A DNA stretch of 15,934 nt from a virus (IMGVR_UViG_2724679239_000005); one strand, 5' to 3'; counted from the stretch's first letter, positions 1 through 15,498 are shown. Translations and numbers: made by a program. Notes: generated from the letters alone by a model not told the origin.

Positions 1-1329
1 ATGAGGTTTGGGTACATTGCTTTGGGTACACCCCCTATTCAAAGTTTGGATATTCGCAAAATGCCAAAACTAACAGACATGCAGATCCGCGCATGGATTA
101 AGAGCGGAGAGCGATTCGAGGGGCGGGCAGACGGTAACGGTTTATACCTACGTTACCGTGAAGCCGACAAAACCCCCACATGGAGATTCCGCTATAAACT
201 CGCAGGGAAGTCCCGCGCCATGCTAATTGGTTCGTATAGCGAGCTATCACTATCAAAGGCCAGAGAGACAGCCAAAGAGCTGTCAGCCAGAGTTGCTCTT
301 GGCTATGACGTAGCAGCAGAGAAACAGGAACGAAAAGCTGAAGCACTGGCAAAAATGGAGGCTGAGAAAAACGCCATGCGTGTTTCAGATCTGGCCTCCG
401 AATACTTCGAGCGCCAGATACTTCCGAGATGGAAACATCCCGATATCCTTCGCCGGAGAATTGATAAGGATATTAACCCCTGCATTGGGCATATGAAGGT
501 AGAGGACGTTAAGCCACGCCACATTGACAACATGTTGAAAGGTATCGTTGACCGAGGAGCACCAACGATAGCAACAGATGTATTACGCTGGACACGCCGT
601 ATCTTTGACTATGGGATAAAACGCCACGCTCTGGAGATAAACCCTTGTTCAGCGTTTGAAGTATCTGATGCTGGTGGTAAAGAGGTTTCCCGCGACCGTT
701 GGCTAACTCGCGATGAGCTTATCAGGCTATTCGAGGCTATGCGCACCGCAAAAGGATTCAGCCGCCAGAACGAACTGACATTTAAGCTATTGCTGGCACT
801 ATGCGTTCGTAAGATGGAGTTATGCGCCGCACGATGGGAAGAGTTTGATTTAGATGGTGCGGTATGGCATTTGCCGGAAGAACGCAGCAAAAACGGAGAC
901 CCTATTGATATACCTCTACCTTCTCCTGCCGTTGAATGGTTGAGAGAGCTACACACCTTTTCATGTAATAGCGCATGGGTGCTTCCAGCCAGGAAGATGC
1001 AAAACAGAATGATCCCACATATTCAGGAAAGCACTTTACCCGTAGCACTGGCTAAGGTTCGCGCCGAAATGCCGGATGTGCCTAATTTCACGATTCACGA
1101 CTTCCGGCGTACCGCACGTACTCATTTAGCAGCATTGGGTGTTGATCCTGTCGTAGCGGAACGATGCCTCAATCATCGCATTAAGGGTGTGGAGGGGATT
1201 TATAACCGCCATCAGTATTTTGATGAGCGTAAAGCTGCGCTGGCACAGTGGGCTGATCTGCTGGTGGCACTGGAAAGCGGGAAAGACTACAACGTAACGC
1301 CATTCGATAAAGCCCGGAGGCAAATGTGA
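1..1329 (+). CDS. int: Tyrosine recombinase / phage integrase, P4/CP4-57 type
   Basis: Frame open from ATG at 1. N-terminal arm-type region (KLTDMQIRAW...GNGLYLRYR...WRFRYK) and C-terminal catalytic motifs HDFRRTART and LNHRIKGVEGIYNRHQY, typical of tyrosine recombinases. The likely true start is ATG at 61 (MPKLTD...), because the first 60 nt carry DNA-level direct repeats and encode no integrase-like residues. Confidence 0.9.
   Translation: MRFGYIALGTPPIQSLDIRKMPKLTDMQIRAWIKSGERFEGRADGNGLYLRYREADKTPTWRFRYKLAGKSRAMLIGSYSELSLSKARETAKELSARVALGYDVAAEKQERKAEALAKMEAEKNAMRVSDLASEYFERQILPRWKHPDILRRRIDKDINPCIGHMKVEDVKPRHIDNMLKGIVDRGAPTIATDVLRWTRRIFDYGIKRHALEINPCSAFEVSDAGGKEVSRDRWLTRDELIRLFEAMRTAKGFSRQNELTFKLLLALCVRKMELCAARWEEFDLDGAVWHLPEERSKNGDPIDIPLPSPAVEWLRELHTFSCNSAWVLPARKMQNRMIPHIQESTLPVALAKVRAEMPDVPNFTIHDFRRTARTHLAALGVDPVVAERCLNHRIKGVEGIYNRHQYFDERKAALAQWADLLVALESGKDYNVTPFDKARRQM
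7..30. repeat. 10-bp perfect direct repeat TTTGGGTACA x2 (7-16, 21-30), 14 bp centre to centre
   Basis: Read directly. The 14-bp offset is not a multiple of 3, so the repeat is DNA-level rather than a peptide repeat. GGTACA resembles the iteron core found downstream of the primase. Confidence 0.3.
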
Positions 1330-1976
1330 ACAACATCTTGAGAAAATCGCCAATCGAACGGCTTTGTTCATCTGTATCGATTACCCCTCATGAAATGGCT
1401 GTGGCCTTGGCTGGCCTAAACCCATCTATGCGCATTAGCGATGTGCCTGAGGAAAATTTCGAATATGTCGATTTTGTCAGAACTCATCTTGCCAGAGCTA
1501 TCAAGGTGTACAGAGGTGAAAAAACTAGTAAAGACGAGCCTTGCCATGCCCTTGATATTTTCTTAGCTTCTTACCCATTTATTGACACAAATACACCAGA
1601 AATAATTGTTCAGAAAATATCAGAAGCGATTGATGATTTGCGTGGCACCAAGGGCTGGGAAGAAAAAGCCCGAAACCTTGGAGGACTCCAGTTAGTAAAC
1701 TACATCAAAGAAACCAACCGCAGCGGACGTGGGCAGCATAGAAAGCAGGATGAGGAAAACGGGACAATGAAAATGATGGGGTTGATAGTACATCTGCTGA
1801 TAAAAAAATCAGGCTCATCTTCCTACATCCAAAATGGGAAACCTAATCGCACAGCTATATACCGTGACATAGAAACCTTAATCAAGGATGAAGGGATATC
1901 CCATAAAGGAATAGCAAAAGCCACATTCCTAGAAAAAATCTCACGGGCTTTATTAGCTGTCCACGATCTCGACTAA
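1326..1976 (+). CDS. Hypothetical protein, 216 aa, GTG start overlapping the int stop (GTGA); alternative ATG start at 1395
   Basis: Six-frame ORF. 4-bp overlap with the int stop suggests translational coupling. Visibly more AT-rich than int. No motif recognised. Confidence 0.5.
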   Translation: MNNILRKSPIERLCSSVSITPHEMAVALAGLNPSMRISDVPEENFEYVDFVRTHLARAIKVYRGEKTSKDEPCHALDIFLASYPFIDTNTPEIIVQKISEAIDDLRGTKGWEEKARNLGGLQLVNYIKETNRSGRGQHRKQDEENGTMKMMGLIVHLLIKKSGSSSYIQNGKPNRTAIYRDIETLIKDEGISHKGIAKATFLEKISRALLAVHDLD

Positions 1977-2333
1977 TCACTTTTCACGCCCCTCCAAAGC
2001 AATGGCGGGGCATTACCTGTTTACCCATCTCCACCAGCATAGATAATTCTAGCCTAGCCATTGCTATATCTGTTCGGCTTAGTTCATCTGTAATCACCCC
2101 ATCTCTAAAAGATACGCCAGCTATCATTAGCCATTTTAAGCCATCATGAGCCATTATAAACCGACTCAACCAATTGAATAATAAAAGATAAAAAGAAATG
2201 TAAAAACATGATGAATGACGATGAAAGATATAACTCTTTGATAAAACAATGATTTTTTAAACTGGTAACTAATTGAAAATAAAGAAAATAATTATCCCAC
2301 CTGCATTTGCAATCTTTCAGTGGATCGGTATTT

Positions 2334-2366
2334 TTTCAATAGATTTATAATTTCTTTCAATAGATT
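2334..2366 (+). promoter_or_regulatory. Candidate operator/promoter upstream of alpA: 12-bp direct repeat TTTCAATAGATT (2334-2345, 2355-2366) flanking a TATAAT hexamer (2346-2351)
   Basis: Read directly in the very AT-rich 470-bp gap. Repeats are 21 bp apart (about two helical turns) with a consensus -10 hexamer between them. No good -35 at 17 bp. Confidence 0.3.
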
Positions 2367-2446
2367 CTAGTCTTAATAGAAATACTGTATGGGCAACCAC
2401 TAAACTTTAAGTAACTTCATGAGCTATCAGAGAGGTTACTAGAGAT

Positions 2447-2665
2447 ATGACAGCACACAAGCCAGCATCATCAGCTATCCCAACAACTGGATACATCCGT
2501 CGCTTTCGCATGCCGGAATTGCTAGGTGTTTCACTGCCTACTATTGATAGATGGGTTAAAAATGGCACTCTTCCACGCCCAGTGAAGCTAACAGATAACG
2601 TGACTGCGTTTGATGCGGTGGAAATTAATAACTGGCTGGCAGAACGCCGCGGGAAGGTGGCCTGA
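2447..2665 (+). CDS. alpA: AlpA/Vis-family phage transcriptional regulator (small HTH, excision activator type)
   Basis: 72 aa. Segment MPELLGVSLPTIDRWVKNGTLPRPVKL matches the AlpA-family helix-turn-helix pattern. RBS AGAGG/GAGAT upstream of ATG 2447. Position after int and before the replication genes is typical. Confidence 0.85.
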   Translation: MTAHKPASSAIPTTGYIRRFRMPELLGVSLPTIDRWVKNGTLPRPVKLTDNVTAFDAVEINNWLAERRGKVA

Positions 2666-3096
2666 TGGAAAAGAAAAACCGCCCATTACAGGCGGCTAAT
2701 TCAGATATTCGCGTATCTGATGTTACGCCCCTTACAAAATCCCTTCAAGCACCAAAGCGCACACCGAAAAAGCATCGTGCCAGAGTCTATATGCTGCGTA
2801 CTGGTATAGAGGGATGGACAGAAAATGACATTCTTCGCTACTGCCGTCTGTCTTCTGGTCGTAACTATGCAACAGAGTTAGAACGCCAGCTTGGAATCAC
2901 TCTGGAGCGTATCGACGAAAAGAATCCTGATGGTATCGGAACACACCTTCGCTACCGTTTCTCCTGCCGTGGTGATGTTCTGAAAGTGATCACTCATGTT
3001 AACCATCTTGCGAACATAAATGATCACAACGGACTTTCTCAGCAGGAAATTGCCGACATTCTGAAACTCTACCCGAACGCGTTTAACGCCGCCTAA
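2665..3096 (+). CDS. Hypothetical protein, 143 aa, basic N-terminus
   Basis: ORF start overlaps the alpA stop by 1 nt (TGATG), indicating coupling. No recognisable motif. Confidence 0.6.
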   Translation: MEKKNRPLQAANSDIRVSDVTPLTKSLQAPKRTPKKHRARVYMLRTGIEGWTENDILRYCRLSSGRNYATELERQLGITLERIDEKNPDGIGTHLRYRFSCRGDVLKVITHVNHLANINDHNGLSQQEIADILKLYPNAFNAA

Positions 3097-3942: not shown

Positions 3943-4117
3943 GCCGACAGGAACACCACAACCCCAAAAACGCTACAAAGATGCCCACGGAGCACTCGTT
4001 ACTGTCGAAAGCGTGTCTCACAACCGAGTGACGTTTTATCGCGACGGGTATCAATCGCCATGCGTACAACCGCTGGCACGTTTCATGAAGGAGTTCGCGG
4101 AGGTTAACAAATGCTAA
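3935..4117 (+). CDS. Small hypothetical protein, 60 aa (MFKPTGTPQPQKRYKDAHGALVTVESVSHNRVTFYRDGYQSPCVQ...), possibly DUF4222-like
   Basis: Strong SD GGAGG (3924-3928) 6 nt before ATG 3935. Start overlaps the end of the upstream gene. Domain assignment is from memory and tentative. Confidence 0.5.
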   Translation: MFKPTGTPQPQKRYKDAHGALVTVESVSHNRVTFYRDGYQSPCVQPLARFMKEFAEVNKC

Positions 4118-5187
4118 CCGCCCAGAAGAAGATGTTTTCACTGGCTGGTATGTCGCCAAAATCCAGCAATATGACAGCAAAGTCAGACATTAATACAGCA
4201 GATACAAGCAAAGTTTATCATTTGCTGGTGGTAGGAGCGGGTGCCTTAACTATGTCAGAAATTACGGTCGATGGTGTTAGCGTTGAGAAGGTCAGCGGCT
4301 GCGCCAGAGAATTTCTGGTCGTAGATGACCTGTTCTGCTCGTGTAGTGACTCCACAAAAACATTCGTCCACGCGCGTGACGTTAACGAAATGAGCGCGAT
4401 GTACTGTGCATCTGGTGCTTCCAATAGCGAGTTTTCGGAGTCCATAAAAAAGAGCTTGCCGTTATGCGGCAACACGGTTTATGGTTATAAGGCACCTCAT
4501 AAAACGGGTGCCGGGATTGGCGTCCTGGTAAATCGAATGGCGACATATGACGCGCCGAGCGTCTTTTTTTATGTCGTAGGTCTGACTCACCCATTTTTTG
4601 GGCGTTGGTGTATAATCCAGCGCCTTTGTCAATCAATGGTGGCTCAGGCAGGGGCTTCTTCGGAAGCGCCGGTATCCATTCGAGCCGGTTACGCCAACCC
4701 TGTCTGGGCTACCACCAGCGAAATTGGCGTTTCCGGTGGTAGCGTTACATGCTATCGAATGGAGGCTGCCACATGCTGGCTACTACCCCTACCCAAAAAC
4801 CGCAATTTATCTGGATTATCGCCGCAGTTCGCCGCGATTGCCCGACAATTACCGCCAAAATTCATCATATTGCTGCCGAGTCTGAACGCGATGCTCGCCG
4901 TTCTCTGGTGCGCGATCACGTCTGCTTTTTTGCTGGTCGTATCCGCATGGAGGTGGCACATGATTAAAACCTACGATGTGCATATGGATCCCCTCGAACG
5001 CACAAGCCAGATCATCACACTGACAGAAGTGATTAACGACATTCTGGTGAGCAACTCTCCCTCACGAGACGAAAGACTGAAGGCGTTACTCGCGATATTG
5101 GATCTCGCCGTTCGTGACGTTCATTTCCTGCTGGAAGGTGGCGAAATGCCAGGAAAAACGGGGGCAACCAATGAAGAACTCAATTAA
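4111..5187 (+). CDS. Ash-family-like open frame (358 codons), true 3' extent uncertain; overlaps the Icd-like gene in another frame
   Basis: Strong SD GGAGG (4099-4103) 7 nt before ATG 4111. Contains a segment resembling the Ash-family signature ([26 protein letters not shown]). The frame stays open to 5187 and there are long shadow ORFs on both strands, so the coding extent is doubtful. Confidence 0.35.
4773..4967 (+). CDS. Host cell division inhibitor Icd-like protein, 64 aa
   Basis: Strong SD GGAGG (4761-4765) 7 nt before ATG 4773. Sequence [14 protein letters not shown]...[11 protein letters not shown]...FAGRI resembles Icd-like proteins of P1/P4-type elements as I recall them. Confidence 0.5.
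   Translation: MLATTPTQKPQFIWIIAAVRRDCPTITAKIHHIAAESERDARRSLVRDHVCFFAGRIRMEVAHD
4960..5187 (+). CDS. Small hypothetical protein, 75 aa; in-frame internal start of the 358-codon frame
   Basis: Strong SD GGAGG (4949-4953) 6 nt before ATG 4960. Overlaps the Icd-like stop (ATGATTAA). Confidence 0.3.
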   Translation: MIKTYDVHMDPLERTSQIITLTEVINDILVSNSPSRDERLKALLAILDLAVRDVHFLLEGGEMPGKTGATNEELN

Positions 5188-6450: not shown

Positions 6451-8802
6451 ATGCGAAACATTGATCTTATCCGTCAGGTTATCAGTGCGTCTGAAAACAA
6501 CTGGCCTCATGTGCTGGGCTGCCTGAACATAAATGTCCCTGACTCTCCGCGCCGTCATGCTCCCTGCCCTGCATGTGGGGGCAAAGATCGATTCCGGTTC
6601 GATGACAACGGGCGCGGTAGCTTCATCTGTAATCAGTGCGGCGCTGGTGATGGGCTGGATTTAATTAAACGCGTAAATAACTGCGACACAACAGAGGCGG
6701 CGCTTCTTGCCGCTGATGTTCTGGGTATTGATTACCGGACAACGGAAACACCAGAAGCCACCAGCCAGAAACGGGAACAACTGGAAGCCGAGCGCCAGCG
6801 ACGCGAACAGGAGCGCCTGAAAAGGGCAGAGAAGGACGAACAACAAAGACGGGATACGTTTTCCCGTCAGTTTGATGACATGCGCAGAAAGGCTGTAAAC
6901 GGCAAATCTGATTATCTGGTTGCGAAAGGGGTAGGTGATTTTACATTCCCCGTGTTGCCAGATGGATCTCTATTGCTGGCGCTGGTGGATAAATCCGGCG
7001 CAGTCACCGCAGCACAGACTATTACCTCACATGGTGAAAAAAGACTCCTGACAGGTTCGGCAAAGCGGGGGGCATATCACGCCATAAACGCACAGAAACG
7101 ACCTCACAGCATCATAATTGCTGAGGGGGTGGCTACCGCCCTGTCGTGCCATTTAATTCGCCCTGACGCAATGACAGTGGCAGCAATCGACGCTGGCAAC
7201 CTGTTGCCAGTAGCGGAAGTCATGCGCAGAACATATCCACAGGCACAAATCATCATTGCCGCAGATAACGATCACCAGCAAGGAAACTCCGAAAGTGGAG
7301 GGATCAACACGGGGAAAGATGCCGCAGAGAGGGCCGCTATTTCCGTAGCTGGCTGGGTGTCTCTGCCACCGACTGACTATAAAGCCGACTGGAACGACTA
7401 TCACCAACAACACGGGCTGGCGGCAGCCACAGCAGCATTTAAAGATTCGATGTACCAGCCACGGGGGAAAGGGGCGCAGGTGAAAAATCACAAACAGTCA
7501 GTCGGGGCGCTGAATGAGATCAGTTCTGGCGAGGTGTTAAGCGATGATGAAATTGCTGTCCTCGAAGAAATCAACCGGACGTTTACGCATGTCACCATCG
7601 GCGGGAAACACAAGGTGGTGTCGCTAAAGCCTTCTCAAACCGGCGGTGTATCGCACGTTTTCGAGGATTTATCACAATTTCAGCATTATTTTCATCATAA
7701 ACCGAGAGTCGCCAGAAAGCTGGCGGGATCGGCGTGGCTGTCATGGAGTGGGAAGAACTACAAGCCAGGAGGCGTAGGATTTTATCCAGTACCAGACAAA
7801 TGCCCTGACGATGTTTTTAATCTGTATGAGGGGCTGGCACTGGAACCAATTGAAGGAGATTGCACGGTATACCTTAATCACCTGTTGCAGGTTGTCTGTG
7901 CCGGTAATGAGGAGGCATACCAATATCTTATCCAGTGGATGGCGCACATTATCCAAAAGCCTGATGAAAAACCGTCCGTGGCAATCGTGATGAAATCTGT
8001 CCCGGGCACAGGGAAAGGCACAACGGTTAAACCGCTGCTGCAAATACTGGGGCAGTACGCCGCCCACATTAACGGGGCGGGACATATTTCAGGGCGCTTC
8101 AATTCAATACTTGCTAACAAGCTACTGGTATTTGCTGACGAAGTGACGATCCACAAGCCGTCTGAAGCTGACAGACTTAAAGCGATTATTAGCGAACCGA
8201 CGTTTAACCTTGAGCGCAAGGGAATTGATGCTGAACCAATGCCGAATTTTGCCCGGTTGATATTTGCCAGTAACAGCACACAGGTATTACAGGCAGGGAT
8301 AAGAGAGCGTCGCTATCTCGTGCTTGAGCCATCTCCTGAAAAAGCACAGAGTCGGGAGTATTTTGATCGGCTGTACAGTTGGCTTAATGATGGCGGTGCC
8401 GCAAAGTTGCTTTGGCATCTTAAAGGGGTGGATCTCTCAGGTTTTGACCCTCAACGAGCGCCACAGACCGATGCCTTACGTGAAGAAATCTTGCTGGGGC
8501 TGTCTGGCGTTGAATTGTTTCTTTATGGCGAGCTAATCAATGAACCTCCGTTTAATGGCGAAGTCCGTTTGTTTGCAAAGGATATGGTTAGTCGATTTGT
8601 AGCGTGGTCGCTTGAGCGTGGGGAAAAGCTTAAAGAGCCAGCAGCCAGATCACTACTGGGTAAATCACTTGCACAAATGGGGCTGGTGAAGCATGGAAGA
8701 CCAGACCGAGGGAATGGCGTGTTCTACGAACTACCAGAGGTCGGAGTTCTACAGGCTGCGTTTGCCCGTCTGATCGGTATGGGGGGTTATGATGTTTTTT
8801 AA
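6451..8802 (+). CDS. Phage/plasmid primase-helicase, P4 alpha-like (Zn-ribbon, TOPRIM primase, C-terminal P-loop helicase domain)
   Basis: 783 aa. N-terminal Cys4 motif CPACGGKDRFRF...FICNQCG; TOPRIM-like acidic motifs IIIAEGVATA and IIIAADNDHQ; P-loop-like MKSVPGTGKGTT and Walker-B-like LLVFADEV. SD GGGGG 5 nt before ATG 6451. Confidence 0.92.
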   Translation: MRNIDLIRQVISASENNWPHVLGCLNINVPDSPRRHAPCPACGGKDRFRFDDNGRGSFICNQCGAGDGLDLIKRVNNCDTTEAALLAADVLGIDYRTTETPEATSQKREQLEAERQRREQERLKRAEKDEQQRRDTFSRQFDDMRRKAVNGKSDYLVAKGVGDFTFPVLPDGSLLLALVDKSGAVTAAQTITSHGEKRLLTGSAKRGAYHAINAQKRPHSIIIAEGVATALSCHLIRPDAMTVAAIDAGNLLPVAEVMRRTYPQAQIIIAADNDHQQGNSESGGINTGKDAAERAAISVAGWVSLPPTDYKADWNDYHQQHGLAAATAAFKDSMYQPRGKGAQVKNHKQSVGALNEISSGEVLSDDEIAVLEEINRTFTHVTIGGKHKVVSLKPSQTGGVSHVFEDLSQFQHYFHHKPRVARKLAGSAWLSWSGKNYKPGGVGFYPVPDKCPDDVFNLYEGLALEPIEGDCTVYLNHLLQVVCAGNEEAYQYLIQWMAHIIQKPDEKPSVAIVMKSVPGTGKGTTVKPLLQILGQYAAHINGAGHISGRFNSILANKLLVFADEVTIHKPSEADRLKAIISEPTFNLERKGIDAEPMPNFARLIFASNSTQVLQAGIRERRYLVLEPSPEKAQSREYFDRLYSWLNDGGAAKLLWHLKGVDLSGFDPQRAPQTDALREEILLGLSGVELFLYGELINEPPFNGEVRLFAKDMVSRFVAWSLERGEKLKEPAARSLLGKSLAQMGLVKHGRPDRGNGVFYELPEVGVLQAAFARLIGMGGYDVF

Positions 8803-8830
8803 TATAGTCTTTTTACAAGAAGATCGTTTT

Positions 8831-8936
8831 TACCTGTACCACCTATACCACTTTGCTAATTCAGTATTAAAAACAGTGCGTTATAGTGGTACAGGTCAAT
8901 ATCTTACCTATACCAGACCTGTACCACCTATACCAT
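8831..8936. repeat. Iteron cluster A: 18-bp perfect direct repeat CCTGTACCACCTATACCA (8833-8850, 8918-8935) plus inverted copy GGTACAGG (8888-8895) and CCTATACCAG (8907-8916)
   Basis: Read directly in the 176-bp gap just after the primase stop. Candidate origin or primase-binding repeats by analogy to the P4 ori/crr octamer iterons. Confidence 0.5.
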
Positions 8937-8978
8937 TAACAAACGCATTTCTTCTGGCTGGCTGAGAGGGAACAACCA

Positions 8979-9209
8979 ATGATGAGCACACCATTTTACA
9001 AAGTGCGCCAGTTAGCTTCTTCCTCTGGCTGGCAGCTACGGTTTGAGGGGCGTTCAGACTGGCTACCCATTGCGGCATGGGCGAATGTTGAAATGTGTAT
9101 TGACGGCGATACCGTTGAAATCATTATTCCCTGCGTGGCAAGTCGGGACGGCTGTATAGAGCCAACAGATATGGCAGCAGAAATCAGAGAGGTAAAACAT
9201 GAACAATAA
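8979..9209 (+). CDS. Hypothetical protein, 76 aa
   Basis: SD GAGGG 9 nt before ATG 8979. Stop overlaps the downstream start region. Confidence 0.45.
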   Translation: MMSTPFYKVRQLASSSGWQLRFEGRSDWLPIAAWANVEMCIDGDTVEIIIPCVASRDGCIEPTDMAAEIREVKHEQ

Positions 9210-9936
9210 CTATTGCATACTGCAGGGAATGACCAGAACGGAGCGCGAAGAATTAAAAAGTTTCGCTACACAGTGCGGGAATGCTGGCGACATCCAAAGT
9301 CTGGAACGCACTTTAATTATGATTGCGCACTGGATGCGCCAGGGGCAAAGAGTTTCATTTACTGAATATGCCAGCCAGTGGACAGAGGCACAGCGCGAAC
9401 GGAGCGACGGTAATCACTCAACACCCGAAATGGCGAAGCAATGGCCTTTCAGTGGTAAACGCTGTATCAGTCCCGGTGGTTCAGATTATTACCCTGCTGG
9501 TGTGGGAGATGAGCCATGTTGTGACGAGACTGAAATCCGCCACGCAGTGACAGTAATTACCGCTGAATACCCACAATTTAACCTTGACGGACTGGCGCTC
9601 CACAACCGGAATGCGGACTGGGAAAACCCGCTTGATAACCCGTCATTTATCGTATCGGCGAAAAGCTGCCTGAGATGGATCAGAGACAACGGGATGAGTA
9701 ATGCCCAGATTGAGAGCTTCCCGCAGGATAACCCCACATCTGACACGTTGAAGCATGAAGTGGAGCGATATAACCAGATAAACCACCAGCACAGTGATCA
9801 CCCGCACTATATCCCCAACGGAGCATTTATTGCGGCGATGGTGGCAAGCGGCTACAAGGTTAAGCCAGCGGGAAGAATGAACGCATTTTTCAATATTTCA
9901 AAAAAGGGATTATGTGCTGCTATGGGTAAAAATTAA
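9199..9936 (+). CDS. Hypothetical protein, 245 aa, Cys/His-containing
   Basis: SD AGAGAGG 6 nt before ATG 9199. No motif recognised. Confidence 0.55.
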   Translation: MNNNYCILQGMTRTEREELKSFATQCGNAGDIQSLERTLIMIAHWMRQGQRVSFTEYASQWTEAQRERSDGNHSTPEMAKQWPFSGKRCISPGGSDYYPAGVGDEPCCDETEIRHAVTVITAEYPQFNLDGLALHNRNADWENPLDNPSFIVSAKSCLRWIRDNGMSNAQIESFPQDNPTSDTLKHEVERYNQINHQHSDHPHYIPNGAFIAAMVASGYKVKPAGRMNAFFNISKKGLCAAMGKN

Positions 9937-9940
9937 ATAA

Positions 9941-10046
9941 ATGGTACAGGTCTGTACAGGTGGGGAGAGGTCATTTTTACCCACCTGTACCACCTGCAGG
10001 CCGCGCCACACAAGGGTTTGTGACATGGTGGTACAGGTGGTACAGC
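9941..10046. repeat. Iteron cluster B: GGTACAGG (9943-9950), TGTACAGGTGG (9953-9963), inverted CCACCTGTACC (9981-9991), tandem GGTGGTACAGGTGGTACAG (10027-10045)
   Basis: Read directly. Includes an inverted repeat TACAGGTGG / CCACCTGTA (9955-9963 and 9981-9989) and the same core as cluster A. Confidence 0.5.
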
Positions 10047-10410
10047 AAAAACAGCGATTTTCTTTATAAGGTATGTTTTGCTCATCTGGCAGACGGAGGT
10101 ATTCGCTGCGGTTTGGCACATAGCCCAGAACAGCAAAGAGTTTTACGAGACTTTTGTAAAATCCAGTGTACAAGGGCGTGACGTTTTTGAAGGTGAGCAC
10201 TACGAAATTTTCGTAGTTCAAAAAATAGCCTCTGAGATGTTGTTATGCCTGTTCAGCAAACCATCCGCATAGCTGATCGCGAATCAAATTACCAATGGAG
10301 CCAGAAGCAAGGGCAGAACTGGAAAGCGCCTGCCGTGAAGAGTAATGCGACTCCATAAATATAGTTTTTAGAGTCCATAAAAAAACTGTCAAAACCTGAC
10401 ATACAGAACG

Positions 10411-10538: not shown

Positions 10539-10712
10539 ATGGCTATTTCAGTAAAGCCAGTATTGATAAGTGAGAAGCAAATGGAAGCGATAAAGAAAAT
10601 TCAGGAGGAGCAGCGTAAAAAATCAGAGGTAGGAGTTGCGCCAACGATCCACGAAATTGCTCGGGGATTAATGGATAAGGCGCTGGCTTACACTTTAACT
10701 GGACGTGGGTAA
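10539..10712 (+). CDS. Small protein, 57 aa, possible ribbon-helix-helix DNA-binding regulator
   Basis: Not in the supplied ORF track; translated by hand as MAISVKPVLISEKQMEAIKKIQEEQRKKSEVGVAPTIHEIARGLMDKALAYTLTGRG. SD AAGGGGG 4-5 nt before the ATG. Short strand-helix-helix pattern compatible with RHH; the fold is inferred. Confidence 0.4.
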   Translation: MAISVKPVLISEKQMEAIKKIQEEQRKKSEVGVAPTIHEIARGLMDKALAYTLTGRG

Positions 10713-10716
10713 ATTT

Positions 10717-12060
10717 ATGGCTACGTGGCAACAGGGTATTAATTCTGGTGGTTTTCTGGCTGGCATCGGTGCGCAAAATGAGAATGCGCCAAAGGCAAGC
10801 GACATTAACGCAACGCTTGGTCTGATCCGCGAAAACAATGAACTGGCTCGCTCAGGTGCAAATAACGTTGCTCTGACAGGTCTTCGTGGTCTGGCTGGAG
10901 TTGCTGACATTTATAAGCAGCAGCAACAGCAGGAACGTAAAGCGGCATTCCAGAAAGGTTATGCAGATGCTTATGCGTCCGGTGACAGGGAGCAGATGCG
11001 TAATCTTATTACAGCATTCCCAGAAGAGTTTGAGGAAGTCCGTAAAGGGATGAGTTATGTCGATGATGCTCAAAGGGATGATTATGGCAATCTGGCGCTC
11101 AAAGCACAGGTAGCCTCATCGCTTGGTCAGGGCGCATTTGGCAGGTTCATGATGGATAATGAGCAGGAGATGCGTCGTTTAGGTATCCCTCCAGAAACTA
11201 TTGCTGAAATGCAGGTTAATGACCCGCAGGGCTTCCAGCATTTCGCAGGTAATCTGGCGCTGTTTTCTCTCGGTCATGAGAAGTATTTCGATATCAAAGA
11301 TCAAATGGAAGGTCGTCGACTTGAGCAAGGGCGACTGGATGAAAGTATGCGTCAGGCTGACATGGAGAACGCGAGAGGATGGGCAAATATCCAGAACGCT
11401 CAACTAGACAGGGCTCAGCGAGCACAAATTCACTCAGATGAGATGGGATTGAAGCTAATGGAGCTGGGGCAAAAAGGTAAGCCGTCAGCAGACTTAATTA
11501 AGGGATTAAATTCTGACATTACCAATTTTGGCAAAAATTATAACTCTGTCAGAGCGGCGGCAAACTCTCTGCAAGCCCTTAGCAAGGTAAATACTGGCGC
11601 TGCCCAACTTGGGATTATCTTCAACTACATGAAATCTCTTGACCCGCAGTCAGTCGTTCGTGAAGGCGAACAGGTTCAGGTAATGCGGTCTGATGGCATA
11701 TGGGGACAAATCAAAGGATACATAGACCAGCTTAATGCTGGAAACGGCCTGTCGCAGGAGGCAAAGGATAACATTGTTAACGCCGCAAAAATCAACGCCA
11801 ATGCTATGGGGCAGCAGTTTAACCAGCAGGTTGACGAGTATCTCGATACATATGGAGAAACTATTCCTCAGGGGCTAAGAAAAAGCCTTGAAAGAAGGAA
11901 AGCGAAGCTATTTGACGATGTTTCCGGGCAGCCTACATCACAGGCTGGCACTGGACAGGCAAAAGCGGCAACCGGAGGAATATCAGAAGGCGCAACGGCA
12001 ACCAACCCTAAAACTGGTCAGAAAATCATTTACAGGAACGGAAAATGGCAGCAAATGTAA
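10717..12060 (+). CDS. Hypothetical protein, 447 aa, Gly-rich N-terminus, Gln/Ala-rich with long predicted coiled-coil; alternative GTG start at 10705
   Basis: Long ORF with coding-like composition. Checked for Walker A (GxxxxGK[ST]) and common nuclease or protease motifs; none seen. Confidence 0.65.
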   Translation: MATWQQGINSGGFLAGIGAQNENAPKASDINATLGLIRENNELARSGANNVALTGLRGLAGVADIYKQQQQQERKAAFQKGYADAYASGDREQMRNLITAFPEEFEEVRKGMSYVDDAQRDDYGNLALKAQVASSLGQGAFGRFMMDNEQEMRRLGIPPETIAEMQVNDPQGFQHFAGNLALFSLGHEKYFDIKDQMEGRRLEQGRLDESMRQADMENARGWANIQNAQLDRAQRAQIHSDEMGLKLMELGQKGKPSADLIKGLNSDITNFGKNYNSVRAAANSLQALSKVNTGAAQLGIIFNYMKSLDPQSVVREGEQVQVMRSDGIWGQIKGYIDQLNAGNGLSQEAKDNIVNAAKINANAMGQQFNQQVDEYLDTYGETIPQGLRKSLERRKAKLFDDVSGQPTSQAGTGQAKAATGGISEGATATNPKTGQKIIYRNGKWQQM

Positions 12061-13238
12061 TCTTACCGGAAGGTTTTGTGCTCGATGAACAACCTGATAA
12101 CTCACAGTTTCCTGATAGTTCACAGCTTCCTGATGGTTTTGTGCTTGATGCCCAACCAGAACAGCAGCAATCACCTTTGGTTTCACCAGAGGAAAATTCC
12201 AGACAGGAAAATGTTGTTAATAATGCTAACGGTTTCGACCGTTTTATGTATGGCGTTCTCAGTGGATTGATGGATGTTGGTAAAGGTGTTGGCCTGTTTC
12301 AGGATATGACACCAGAAGAGCAAGCCGCAATTCAGTCTCTACAGCAGAAGTTAGCGGCAAAACCATCAACCGCACAAGATGTTGGTGAGTTCGTTGGACA
12401 AGCAGCGCCATTTGTTAGTGGTGGTGGGATTATTTCTCAGGTTCCCAAAGGGGCGGCAAGACTGGCTGCCGCCGCAGGGCTTGGTGCTGGAGAAGGGGCT
12501 ATTGTAGCCAATGGAACAAATAGCGATGTTGCTTCCGGCGCTGCTATTGGCGCTGTGGCTGGCCCTGTAGCCGAACTTGCTGGCCCTGCAATTAATAAAA
12601 TAGCTGGGAAATTAACCAAGAAGAATGTTTCTTCGATTCCAGATATTGAGGGGATTACTCCTGCCGAAGAGAAAATTCGTAAGTTATCTGCACAAGGCAA
12701 CCCAAATCTTGCCTCTTCGCTTGAAGGGCTAGATCTAAAACCTCAGAAAGAAATTGTTGAGGCTGCAAATAGGCTTCATGTTGATTCAGTTCTTCCTTCT
12801 CATTTATCAGGAAATGAGCAATACCAAGCTGTAGAGCAAGCCCTAAAGTCACGGACAGGATCAGCGTTAAAAGCTCAAGAAGATAAAGCAATAAGCGAAT
12901 TAGCCTCTAGTGCTGGCAAGATAATCGATGATGTTGCTGGTGCGCCAGATGCGTTAGCTATGAGCGAAAAATATATTTATCAGATAAATAGTAGAATGGA
13001 AGCACTAAAAAACCGTAGTGATCAGTTATATAAACGTGTTGATTCCGCTCTATCACCAAGAACAAAAGTCGAAGCAAATAACACAAGCACTATGCTGGAA
13101 AAAATCGCTGATGATTTAGGAGGGTGGGATAATCTTGACCCAATAGAAAAGCGAGTTTTTACAGCAATAAACCCCGGCCCAGATAGCATCCTAACGTATG
13201 CAAATTTAAACAGGCAAAGGCGTTTAGTTGGTGATTAG
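12045..13238 (+). pseudogene. N-terminal fragment (397 codons) of a roughly 705-aa gene interrupted by IS2; stop codon TAG supplied by the first bases of IS2
   Basis: ATG 12045 with SD AGGA 7 nt upstream, overlapping the end of the 447-aa gene by 16 nt. The frame runs into the IS2 left end, where TAG at 13236-13238 terminates it. Confidence 0.7.
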
Positions 13239-13326
13239 ACTGGCCCCCTGAATCTCCAGACAACCAGTATCACTTATTTAAGTGATAGTCTTAATACTAG
13301 TTTTTAGACTAGTCATTGGAGAGCAG

Positions 13327-13692
13327 ATGATTGATGTCTTAGGACCGGAGAAACGCAGACGGCGTACTACACAGGAAAAGATCGCTATTGTTCAGCAGAG
13401 TTTTGAACCGGGAATGACGGTCTCCCTTGTTGCCCGGCAACACGGTGTGGCAGCCAGCCAGTTATTTCTCTGGCGCAAGCAATACCAGGAGGGAAGTCTT
13501 ACTGCTGTGGCCGCAGGAGAGCAGGTCGTTCCTGCCTCTGAACTTGCTGCTGCCATGAAGCAGATTAAAGAACTCCAGCGCCTGCTCGGAAAAAAAACGA
13601 TGGAAAATGAACTCCTTAAAGAAGCCGTTGAATATGGGCGTGCAAAAAAGTGGATAGCGCACGCGCCCTTATTGCCCGGGGATGGGGAGTAA
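13327..13692 (+). CDS. insC: IS2 transposase OrfA (InsC), 121 aa
   Basis: [41 protein letters not shown]... is the IS2 InsC sequence. The track ORF starting at 13282 is an upstream in-frame extension. Confidence 0.9.
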
Positions 13693-14555
13693 GCTTAGTC
13701 AGCCGTTGTCTCCGGGTGTCGCGTGCGCAGTTGCACGTAATTCTCAGACGAACCGATGACTGGAAAGATGGTCGCCGCAGCCGTCACTCAGATGATACGG
13801 ATGTGCTTCTCCGTATACACCATGTTATCGGAGAGCTGCCCACGTATGGTTATCGTCGGGTATGGGCGCTGCTTCGCAGACAGGCCGAACTTGATGGTAT
13901 GCCTGCGATCAATGCCAAACGGGTTTACCGGATCATGCGCCAGAATGCGCTGTTGCTTGAGCGAAAAACCGCTGTACCGCCATCGAAACGGGCACATACA
14001 GGCAAAGTGGCCGTGAAAGAAAGCAATCAACGATGGTGCTCTGACGGGTTCGAGTTCCGCTGTGATAACGGAGAAAAACTGCGAGTCACGTTCGCGCTGG
14101 ACTGCTGTGACCGTGAGGCACTGCACTGGGCAGTCACTACGGGCGGCTTCGACAGTGAAACAGTACAGGACGTAATGCTGGGAGCGGTGGAACGCCGCTT
14201 CGGCAACGAGCTTCCGGCGTCTCCAGTAGAGTGGCTGACGGATAATGGTTCATGCTACCGGGCTAATGAAACACTCCAGTTTGCCCGGATGTTGGGGCTT
14301 GAACCGAAGAACACGGCGGTGCGGAGTCCGGAGAGTAACGGCATAGCAGAGAGCTTCGTGAAAACGATAAAGCGTGACTACATCAGTGTCATGCCTAAAC
14401 CAGACGGTTTAACGGCAGCAAAGAACCTTGCAGAGGCGTTCGAGCATTATAACGAATGGCATCCGCATAGTGCACTGGGTTATCGCTCGCCACGGGAATA
14501 TCTACGGCAGCAGGCCAGTAATGGGTTAAGTGATAACAGGTGTCTGGAAATATAG
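13650..14555 (+). CDS. insD: IS2 transposase OrfB (InsD), 301 aa; expressed as an OrfAB fusion by -1 frameshift at AAAAAAG (13644-13650)
   Basis: [23 protein letters not shown]... is IS2 InsD. GTG start at 13650 lies at the slippery heptamer. The sequence shows typical IS3-family integrase-core character. Confidence 0.9.
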
Positions 14556-14566
14556 GGGCAAATCCA

Positions 14567-15498
14567 GTGATGCCCTAAATAAAAAGCAGGGGCCATACAA
14601 AGATGCTGATAAAGAAGCGCTATCAAGACTATATGGAGCTTTAGCTGAAGACCAAAAATCTGTCTTATCCAATACTGGATACTTGCGAGATTTCGAAGTC
14701 GCACAACGCCTTGTAGCTATGAGAAAAAACTTAGAAAGGCAAATGGTAAATCTTCGCGGGAAAACACTTAATGGGGATATAGCGTATAAAGTAACGAATT
14801 CTCTTCAATCTATGGCAAAAGGTGATGCGAGAGGGTTTCGTGAGATTATGCAAAATACTCCATCAAGAACATTGCGAAGGGAGCTAGTAGGAACAGCATT
14901 AAGAGATATGCTTTCCTCTGGGAAGCGTGGGGCCGACTTTAATCCATCTGGCTTTGCAGATTGGTGGCAAAACTTGCAACACAGTGGACAGCTAAAGACT
15001 TTGGCTGAACATTTGCCAAAAGAAACAATGAGCGGACTATATGATGTATACAAAGTTGCCAGAGCAATAAAAAATGCTAAAGCGCATGAAATATCTACTG
15101 GTAAGCTGAATGAGTTTGTAAACAGATTTAATCGGGTAACAGCTCCATACGAACTAGCAGCAAAACACATTCAAAAAATAGGCACGATGGTAGGCGCTCA
15201 TTTTGGATCGCTTGGAGCCATTGCTGGGGCTGATATTGGAGCAAGATTGGCGAGTAAAGCTCGATTAGCTGGTGGAGCAGGGGCGGCTGATGCTGCGGAT
15301 AAATTAATTGCCTCGCCAGCCTTCCAGAGCGCAGTAAAAAATCTACACGGAAAAGCGCCTGGGCACATTGTTGATTCACGTATCAGGCGCTCCCCTCAAT
15401 GGAAGAGTTTTTTTAACTCTCTTCCTGAACAGGAAAAACGGACCATCGCCAGACTGGGCATCATTACTTGGCTATCTAATGATCCAGATAATGACTAG
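14567..15498 (+). pseudogene. C-terminal fragment (about 308 codons) of the IS2-interrupted gene, in frame with the N-terminal fragment once IS2 and one TSD copy are removed
   Basis: Removing 13236-14566 and one GTGAT joins ...RRLVGD to ALNKKQGPYKD... in frame. The track ORF 14530-15498 is this frame extended back into the IS2 right end. Confidence 0.65.

Follow-up and report, generated by a model that had tools for sequence, protein, structure and literature searches.

Phage-inducible chromosomal islands (PICIs) of Gram-negative bacteria need the activator AlpA for excision, replication and transfer (PMC6092414; PMC11773190), and AlpA is still named their master regulator in PMC11773190. Helper phages induce alpA by an unknown route, and it is unclear whether Gram-negative PICIs have a repressor (PMC6092414). 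In the PICIs of Gram-positive bacteria, such as the Staphylococcus aureus pathogenicity islands (SaPIs), the master repressor Stl/Rpr gates the promoter that starts the island cycle (PMC6092414). We analysed a 15,934-nt stretch of viral DNA, IMGVR_UViG_2724679239_000005 (the window; positions are counted from its first letter), that carries a Gram-negative island with a 216-aa open reading frame (ORF) at 1326-1976, between the integrase gene int and alpA. We use the name famA for the family of this ORF (phrog_30524). By sequence comparison, famA and a four-repeat array at the alpA promoter are associated in both directions. We propose that famA is a conserved, int-coupled, trans-acting regulator that would gate the alpA promoter as a functional analogue of Stl/Rpr, a reading to which we give a probability of about 0.5.

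The genes of the element run in one direction in the order int-alpA-primase, and its size and lack of a full structural and lysis gene set are those of Gram-negative PICIs (~10-20 kb). The organisation fits the four-zone scheme of PMC10111431, and Pfam recognised AlpA, an AntA antirepressor, Ash and a primase with Zn-ribbon, Toprim and DUF5906 domains. By this gene content we class the element as a PICI-type island of Gram-negative bacteria that has P4-like parts. An earlier note on this DNA had treated it as P4-like and had placed the ORF in the known P4 hotspot for anti-phage genes. Neither point held. Because psu, delta and sid had no match among the window ORFs scanned with Pfam and PHROGs (small ORFs were not all scanned), we do not class the element as a P4-like satellite proper. 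Its order is int-X-alpA-...-primase, and the hotspot published for P4 is at another position, between int and psu-delta-sid (PMC13586616).

The start of the ORF was called correctly in the earlier note. The GTG (1326-1328) and the int stop codon TGA (1327-1329) form a GTGA with a 4-bp overlap, and RefSeq/PGAP annotates the identical CDS with the same overlap in Escherichia coli EcPF7 (WP_001059729.1, hypothetical protein). Islands of the EcPF7 type adjoin yicC in E. coli genomes, with int on the yicC side. In relatives famA starts with an ATG within an overlap of the form ATGA or TAATG, and conservation extends over residues 1-30, so we preferred the GTG at 1326 over an in-frame ATG at 1395. 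In all relatives compared, the bases just ahead of the start are purine-rich. The int start annotated in relatives corresponds to about position 61 of the window.

Three observations show famA to be a real gene under strong purifying selection. Its product aligns along its whole length with the phrog_30524 profile (E 3e-34; residues 11-209 on profile positions 14-213 of 220), conservation begins at residue 1, and dN against relatives is low (0.12-0.21) where synonymous sites are saturated. The claim that the gene is more AT-rich than int also stands (G+C 0.43 versus 0.50; famA is below int in most relatives), as does that of an AT-rich 470-bp gap behind it (1977-2446; about 0.34 G+C, with a minimum of 0.287 at 2101-2400). 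Just past the famA stop is a G+C-rich hairpin that is probably the 3' end of an int-famA transcript; two relatives (L004 and L010) have hairpins of different sequence at the equivalent position.

The family is small and belongs to the Enterobacterales, with 19 clusters by word-indexed search and 35 representatives at 50% identity among 1.84 billion proteins. Protein lengths range from 206 to 241 aa, and the sources are Escherichia, Salmonella, Klebsiella, Buttiauxella, Yersinia, Serratia, Rouxiella, Pantoea, Erwinia and others. We first compared the window with the 13 different famA arrangements that occur in the first 22 loci. In this set famA starts 4 or 1 nt inside int or 1-2 nt past it, except for a remote homologue (in L022) with a 95-nt gap from int. 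Abutment is kept with distant integrases (phmmer E 1e-23 to 1e-37 against the window int). The gene directly follows int in vB_KppS-Ant, a 16.5-kb induced island like a capsid-forming PICI (cf-PICI) with a 28% identical famA, in the O157:H7 yicC island, in an E. coli ssrA/smpB island (P0054, 23% identical), in a Yersinia yicC island and in seven GTDB species representatives. Among 51 further IMG/VR loci, wherever upstream DNA is present, the gap between int and famA is -4, -1 or +1 nt, or +30 nt in one lineage. There are two exceptions, a remote homologue (P0050) in a degraded island, and L064 (IMGVR_UViG_2870897478_000005), which has tail genes upstream and no adjacent int and which retains famA, the array and alpA. 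At 2114-6328 of L064 these three adjoin tail genes (Dit-like, Pam3_gp18 plug) and a PAAR/DUF4225 protein, and this locus may be an island that sits inside a prophage or is joined to one.

Overall, famA homologues down to 21-28% identity sit after int in cf-PICI-, PICI- and P4-primase-type islands from Escherichia, Klebsiella, Yersinia, Pantoea, Erwinia and further genera. Within E. coli (5,426 complete genomes), ~555 genomes have a related int and ~203 have famA, O157:H7 among them; of the two famA alleles, one is at least 99% and the other about 70% identical in DNA to the window. The earlier note had held that conservation as a core gene in all related elements would count against its reading; we found such conservation in many lineages but not in all.

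The array that accompanies famA consists of four direct repeats of consensus TTTCAATRGAT (core TTTCAATRGA) starting at 2313, 2332, 2353 and 2369. The repeats are spaced by 19, 21 and 16 nt, span 65-135 bp upstream of the alpA ATG and abut the alpA -35 region, with a poor -35 that overlaps repeat 4. The same motif with 19-21/21/16 spacing was present in 11 of the 11 famA loci where an AlpA-family gene directly follows famA. Among them are loci of Yersinia (famA 21-23% identical), Pantoea and Erwinia and the cf-PICI vB_KppS-Ant (28%), and they cover lineages with 21-38% famA identity. The array was absent from all seven sampled yicC islands with another gene in place of famA.

The presence of the array does not track the type of AlpA. 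Four array-less islands (L017, L018, L019 and L024) have an AlpA 70-79% identical to that of the window, whereas AlpA of array-bearing islands is 57% (O157) and 64% or 32% (Yersinia) identical. Some array-bearing islands encode a 94-aa AlpA-family protein that has no BLAST relation to the window AlpA and is confirmed as AlpA by Pfam. Nor does the array track the integrase, as the yicC-type int occurs both with and without it, or the primase, the types of which differ among array-bearing islands.

We searched in the reverse direction with a three-repeat pattern (TCAATRGA-N12-13-TYRATRGA-N8-9-TYRATRGA). All six hits in the whole of IMG/VR were located 120-470 bp downstream of famA. The metagenome collection, which is much larger, gave 37 hits; 13 adjoin alpA, every one with famA upstream, and the remaining 24 have no int, alpA or famA and were taken as chance matches, their number fitting the chance expectation. 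The three-repeat pattern was thus specific; a two-repeat pattern gave at least 120 chance hits in IMG/VR, none with famA among the matches listed. Single copies of the motif are not enriched across the window (7 found versus 6.1 expected); the signal of the array is its clustering and conservation across loci, not the motif count.

The alpA gene of the ssrA lineage has its own array of three repeats, with the same spacing and a different sequence (TTTC-N4-CCGGAC). Here 3-4 kb of defence cargo lies between famA, which stays at int, and alpA, and the array remains at the alpA promoter, which points to an action of famA in trans.

This cargo consists of known defence systems and is directly downstream of famA: PD-T7-5 (E 3e-136) in L005, Lamassu LmuA/LmuC/LmuB in L074, PDC-M48B in L075 and PD-T4-7 in L076. 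In the ssrA-type relatives famA is the invariant gene at the left edge of a defence hotspot, and the AT-rich gap of the window looks like the corresponding insertion site in an empty state. Among E. coli yicC islands with an int of 81-97% DNA identity, famA and the gap are swapped for unrelated single genes. In strain AH25 the swapped cassette corresponds to 1306-2474 of the window, with flanks 93.5% and 95.7% identical to it. All seven sampled islands without famA (L017, L018, L019, L023, L024, L025 and L026) carry a single gene between int and alpA, co-oriented with them and encoding 201-316 aa, and none of these slot genes had a Pfam, PADLOC or PHROG match. The proposal that the position next to int is variable was therefore right for the yicC swaps and the ssrA defence genes. 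For the ORF itself the picture is mixed: it is swapped for unrelated genes among yicC islands, yet across all lineages it stays fixed after int with cargo inserting downstream, and a role as the cargo is not supported.

The N- and C-termini of the slot proteins look like those of famA by eye, but hhalign gave a probability of at most 0.3%, against 96-97% for the true remote homologues P0046, P0050 and P0053, and we rejected them as famA homologues. Four slot proteins (316, 307, 281 and 260 aa) form a divergent family with the N-terminal motif LPPxEYFxLDRAAxxLxCExDDLL. The famA-less yicC islands have ~110 bp with palindromes upstream of alpA instead of the direct-repeat array. The gene after alpA (2665-3096 in the window, 143 aa) is kept in all sampled yicC islands whatever the slot gene; one RefSeq annotation calls it a "PM1773 family protein" and the others hypothetical.

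The famA protein has a confident, all-helical predicted structure that matched no known fold in a structure search. As the earlier note had it, no motif is recognisable: Pfam and NCBIfam gave zero matches for the window protein, and PADLOC-DB 2.0 gave no family at E <= 1. As positive controls for PADLOC, neighbours of famA homologues matched PD-T7-5, LmuA/B/C, PD-T4-7 and PDC-M48B. Nor did the window protein match Pfam Phage_AlpA or HTH_17, the domains of the small basic AlpA/excisionase proteins (recombination directionality factors, RDF); one of 34 family members gave such a hit at E 0.024. The N-terminal domain (1-131) is acidic (pI 5.6) and the C-terminal part (132-216) basic (pI 9.75). 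The most conserved loop, GRGQHRKQDE at 134-143, has the family form G-R-G-x-H-R-K-x-D-E; other highly conserved features are T90-P91, G119-G120 and the start of a C-terminal helix, G-[IL]-x-K-S-T-F-Y-x-K. Judged from the loop and the basic C-terminal part, DNA binding by famA is plausible. Literature searches by the famA accession number and the phrog id returned no match.

In the model that we propose, the int transcript of the quiescent island would yield famA as well as Int and would end at the hairpin at 1988-2011. The protein would act in trans on the four-repeat TTTCAATRGA array beside the alpA -35 and, when bound, would gate AlpA and with it the activation of excision and replication. 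The most likely direction is repression, relieved by the helper phage; a helper-dependent activator would suit the poor -35 overlapping repeat 4 equally well. Both the binding of famA to the array and the direction of regulation are inferences. A repressor made together with Int would form an "establishment module", for which the co-expression of Int and CI in lambda is a loose comparison. The L064 locus, where the famA-array-alpA unit persists with no int upstream, counts for a regulatory role.

Several observations weigh against this model. Because famA and the array are physically linked, their inheritance as one cassette could by itself yield the association. The repeats partly resemble the core of the integration host factor (IHF) site, TCAA-N4-TT, so a host protein could bind them instead. 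Among 34 family members, Pfam found no helix-turn-helix (HTH) domain above threshold. Scattered sub-threshold HTH hits occur in 1-2 of the 34, and the C-terminal hairpin segment also matches pentatricopeptide repeat (PPR)-like repeats (in P0045); a C-terminal HTH, which we considered, is unproven. Close yicC relatives work with unrelated slot genes and no array, and EcCICFT073 is induced through AlpA (PMC6092414), its alpA appearing to be the second ORF with no slot gene before it. Because these islands work, famA is not universally required.

A single-gene accessory function was the earlier note's candidate. On this account famA would act against phages (abortive infection or superinfection exclusion) or against host defences, and the quiescent island would express it along with int. 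This interval is reported to hold accessory genes in PICIs (PMC10085698), ssrA-type islands hold known defence genes there, and the related island EcCIMP1 confers superinfection immunity by an unknown mechanism (PMC11773190). The lower G+C of famA than of int in most relatives and the swapping of its cassette for unrelated genes among yicC islands with near-identical int would also suit such a gene. We nevertheless find it unlikely, as famA matches nothing in PADLOC, Pfam or NCBIfam, keeps a nearly invariant context directly after int, and co-exists with real defence cargo while staying on the conserved side. Such a function also leaves unexplained the two-way link of famA with the alpA-promoter array.

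That link would need no regulatory explanation if another factor (a host nucleoid protein such as IHF or Fis, AlpA, or an activator of the helper phage) bound the array and famA were a gene of unrelated function carried in the same mobile cassette. Physical linkage suffices for co-occurrence, the repeats contain the IHF-core-like TCAA-N4-TT, and AlpA activates its own promoter in EcCICFT073 and EcCIMP1 (PMC6092414; PMC11773190). Yet the RGA positions of the repeats are conserved though free in the IHF consensus, and four sites 16-21 bp apart are probably too close for separate IHF footprints. The array is also kept with very different AlpA proteins and absent with similar ones, and in the ssrA lineage the linkage survives 3-4 kb of cargo with both famA and the repeat sequence changed. 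We consider binding by another factor distinctly improbable.

The start of famA, overlapping or abutting the int stop in every lineage (-4, -1, +1; +30 nt in one), could instead mean that the protein serves Int itself, as an architectural, directionality or stability factor kept in a fixed ratio to Int by translational coupling. The two genes have co-diverged over at least five deep lineages and several att sites, yicC and ssrA among them. Against such a role, an int 93-97% identical in DNA works in islands without famA, L064 retains famA, the array and alpA without an adjacent int, and the conserved DNA partner is at the alpA promoter, about 2.3 kb from attL, and not in the att arms. AlpA-family proteins already serve as excisionase in related elements (PMC10111431). 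An Int factor is, in our judgement, very unlikely.

A regulator of alpA is the reading that we prefer, and it can be extended with more doubt. It is possible, though on balance we would not expect it, that famA is the gatekeeper of many Gram-negative PICI, cf-PICI and P4-primase islands: a DNA-binder of unseen fold that would oligomerise on the four repeats and hold alpA shut until a helper protein removes it. If so, the slot genes of the sister islands would be alternative sensors with other helper specificities, like the Stl alleles of SaPIs. The famA-array pair, conserved from E. coli to Yersinia, offers a concrete protein and a concrete DNA site for two questions, namely how the helper switches on alpA and whether Gram-negative islands have a repressor. 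Searches for new defence genes that rely on hotspots should take famA as a flank and not as a candidate, because the cargo is inserted between famA and the alpA promoter.

Table 1. Features around famA in the window
Feature	Position	Strand	Description
int, P4-type tyrosine integrase	1..1329	+	Pfam Arm-DNA-bind_3, Phage_int_M, Phage_integrase
GGAGG Shine-Dalgarno	1316..1320	+	within the int 3' end, 5 nt ahead of the famA GTG
famA, 216 aa, phrog_30524 family	1326..1976	+	translationally coupled to int; ORF call, translation, profile match
AT-rich intergenic region	1977..2446		470 bp; site of defence cargo in ssrA-type relatives; holds the alpA regulatory region
G+C-rich hairpin	1988..2011	+	just past the famA stop; minimum free energy (MFE) -15.1 kcal/mol, z -2.5; no U-tract
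Four AGCYAT units, iteron-like	2119..2158	+	phased at 10 bp, as two direct repeats of 20 nt; conserved in part in L010, L016 and L004
Four direct repeats TCTTTCAGTGGAT, TTTTTCAATAGAT, TCTTTCAATAGAT, GTCTTAATAGAAA	2313..2381	+	candidate famA operator
alpA, AlpA-family regulator	2447..2665	+	Pfam Phage_AlpA

The gap between famA and alpA may hold an element like an origin (ori) or cis replication region (crr), as suggested by the iteron-like repeats found there. The equivalent gap has four GTTCACC units in L010 (about 6700-6760) and runs of CATTCAACAG, CACGTAACG and GTTCATC in vB_KppS-Ant (L003 7120-7340). These GTTCAYC units resemble the P4 type I iteron, TGTTCACC.

Rfam matched isrK at 4492-4569 (67 bits) and the C4 antisense RNA at 4632-4719 (79.5 bits), both above the gathering score, on the + strand and inside an Ash-family ORF (4111-5187). 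This pair of profiles detects the CI immunity RNA of P4 and its seqA target (PMC10111431), and from these matches the island probably also has an RNA-based immunity acting on the alpA-ash-primase operon.

The EcPF7 island (L001) is otherwise 97-99% identical to the window and differs over window positions 7472-10289, which cover the 3' part of the primase and later genes. The primase has 783 aa in the window and 918 aa (TOPRIM + DUF927) in EcPF7, and this difference is a second mosaic replacement within the island. A 1331-bp IS2-type insertion (13236-14566), with transposase ORFs at 13282-13692 and 13650-14555, interrupts a phrog_6704 gene, the two parts of which are at 12045-13238 and 14530-15498. 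This gene is intact in EcPF7 (2118 nt), and the EcPF7 alignment overlaps by 5 bp at the junction, as expected of a target-site duplication. The region 10705-13238 together with 14530-15498 encodes homologues of the ejection (DNA-transfer) proteins of P22-type phages, namely phrog_917, annotated as 'released from the phage upon host infection', and phrog_770, annotated as 'DNA transfer protein'. Similar genes are present in EcCIMP1, the helper of which is P22-like, and the homologues could serve in helper hijacking or superinfection exclusion.

EcCIMP1 of E. coli MP1 (PMC11773190) resembles the window island in its int, alpA, AntA-type antirepressor, primase and P22-type ejection homologues, and in having PerC, which occurs in relatives of the window. 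It is mobilised by a P22-like helper and, unlike the islands at yicC, sits at tRNA-Thr (PMC11773190). EcCIMP1_002, between int and alpA, was tried as a famA homologue and rejected; its protein is ~10% of the length of UvrB.

With the hotspot cargo of P4-like satellites and PICIs, famA shares a place beside int and an interval that is variable in relatives. It differs in that its position and coupling are kept over 21-100% identity and that it matches no defence model. Like AlpA/Vis, famA is encoded beside int, in what PMC10111431 names the "integration zone", and the two are each implicated in controlling the alpA promoter. AlpA is a protein of 70-95 aa with a Phage_AlpA HTH, encoded by the next gene downstream, whereas famA has 216 aa and no AlpA domain.

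The comparison with Stl/Rpr of Gram-positive PICIs and SaPIs is one of place and proposed function. No similarity of sequence or fold connects them, and famA has no recognisable HTH. It is co-oriented with alpA, with the hairpin and 470 bp in between, and not divergent from it, is translationally coupled to int, and has as its candidate target phased direct repeats at the promoter of an activator, alpA. Like Stl/Rpr, famA has its place between int and the module for excision and replication, varies strongly from one element to another and gives way to unrelated genes in close relatives; in the model it would also share expression in the quiescent state and the gating of the promoter with which the island cycle begins (PMC6092414). 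It is a member of neither Stl/Rpr nor another known family and, if the model is right, would work like Stl/Rpr.

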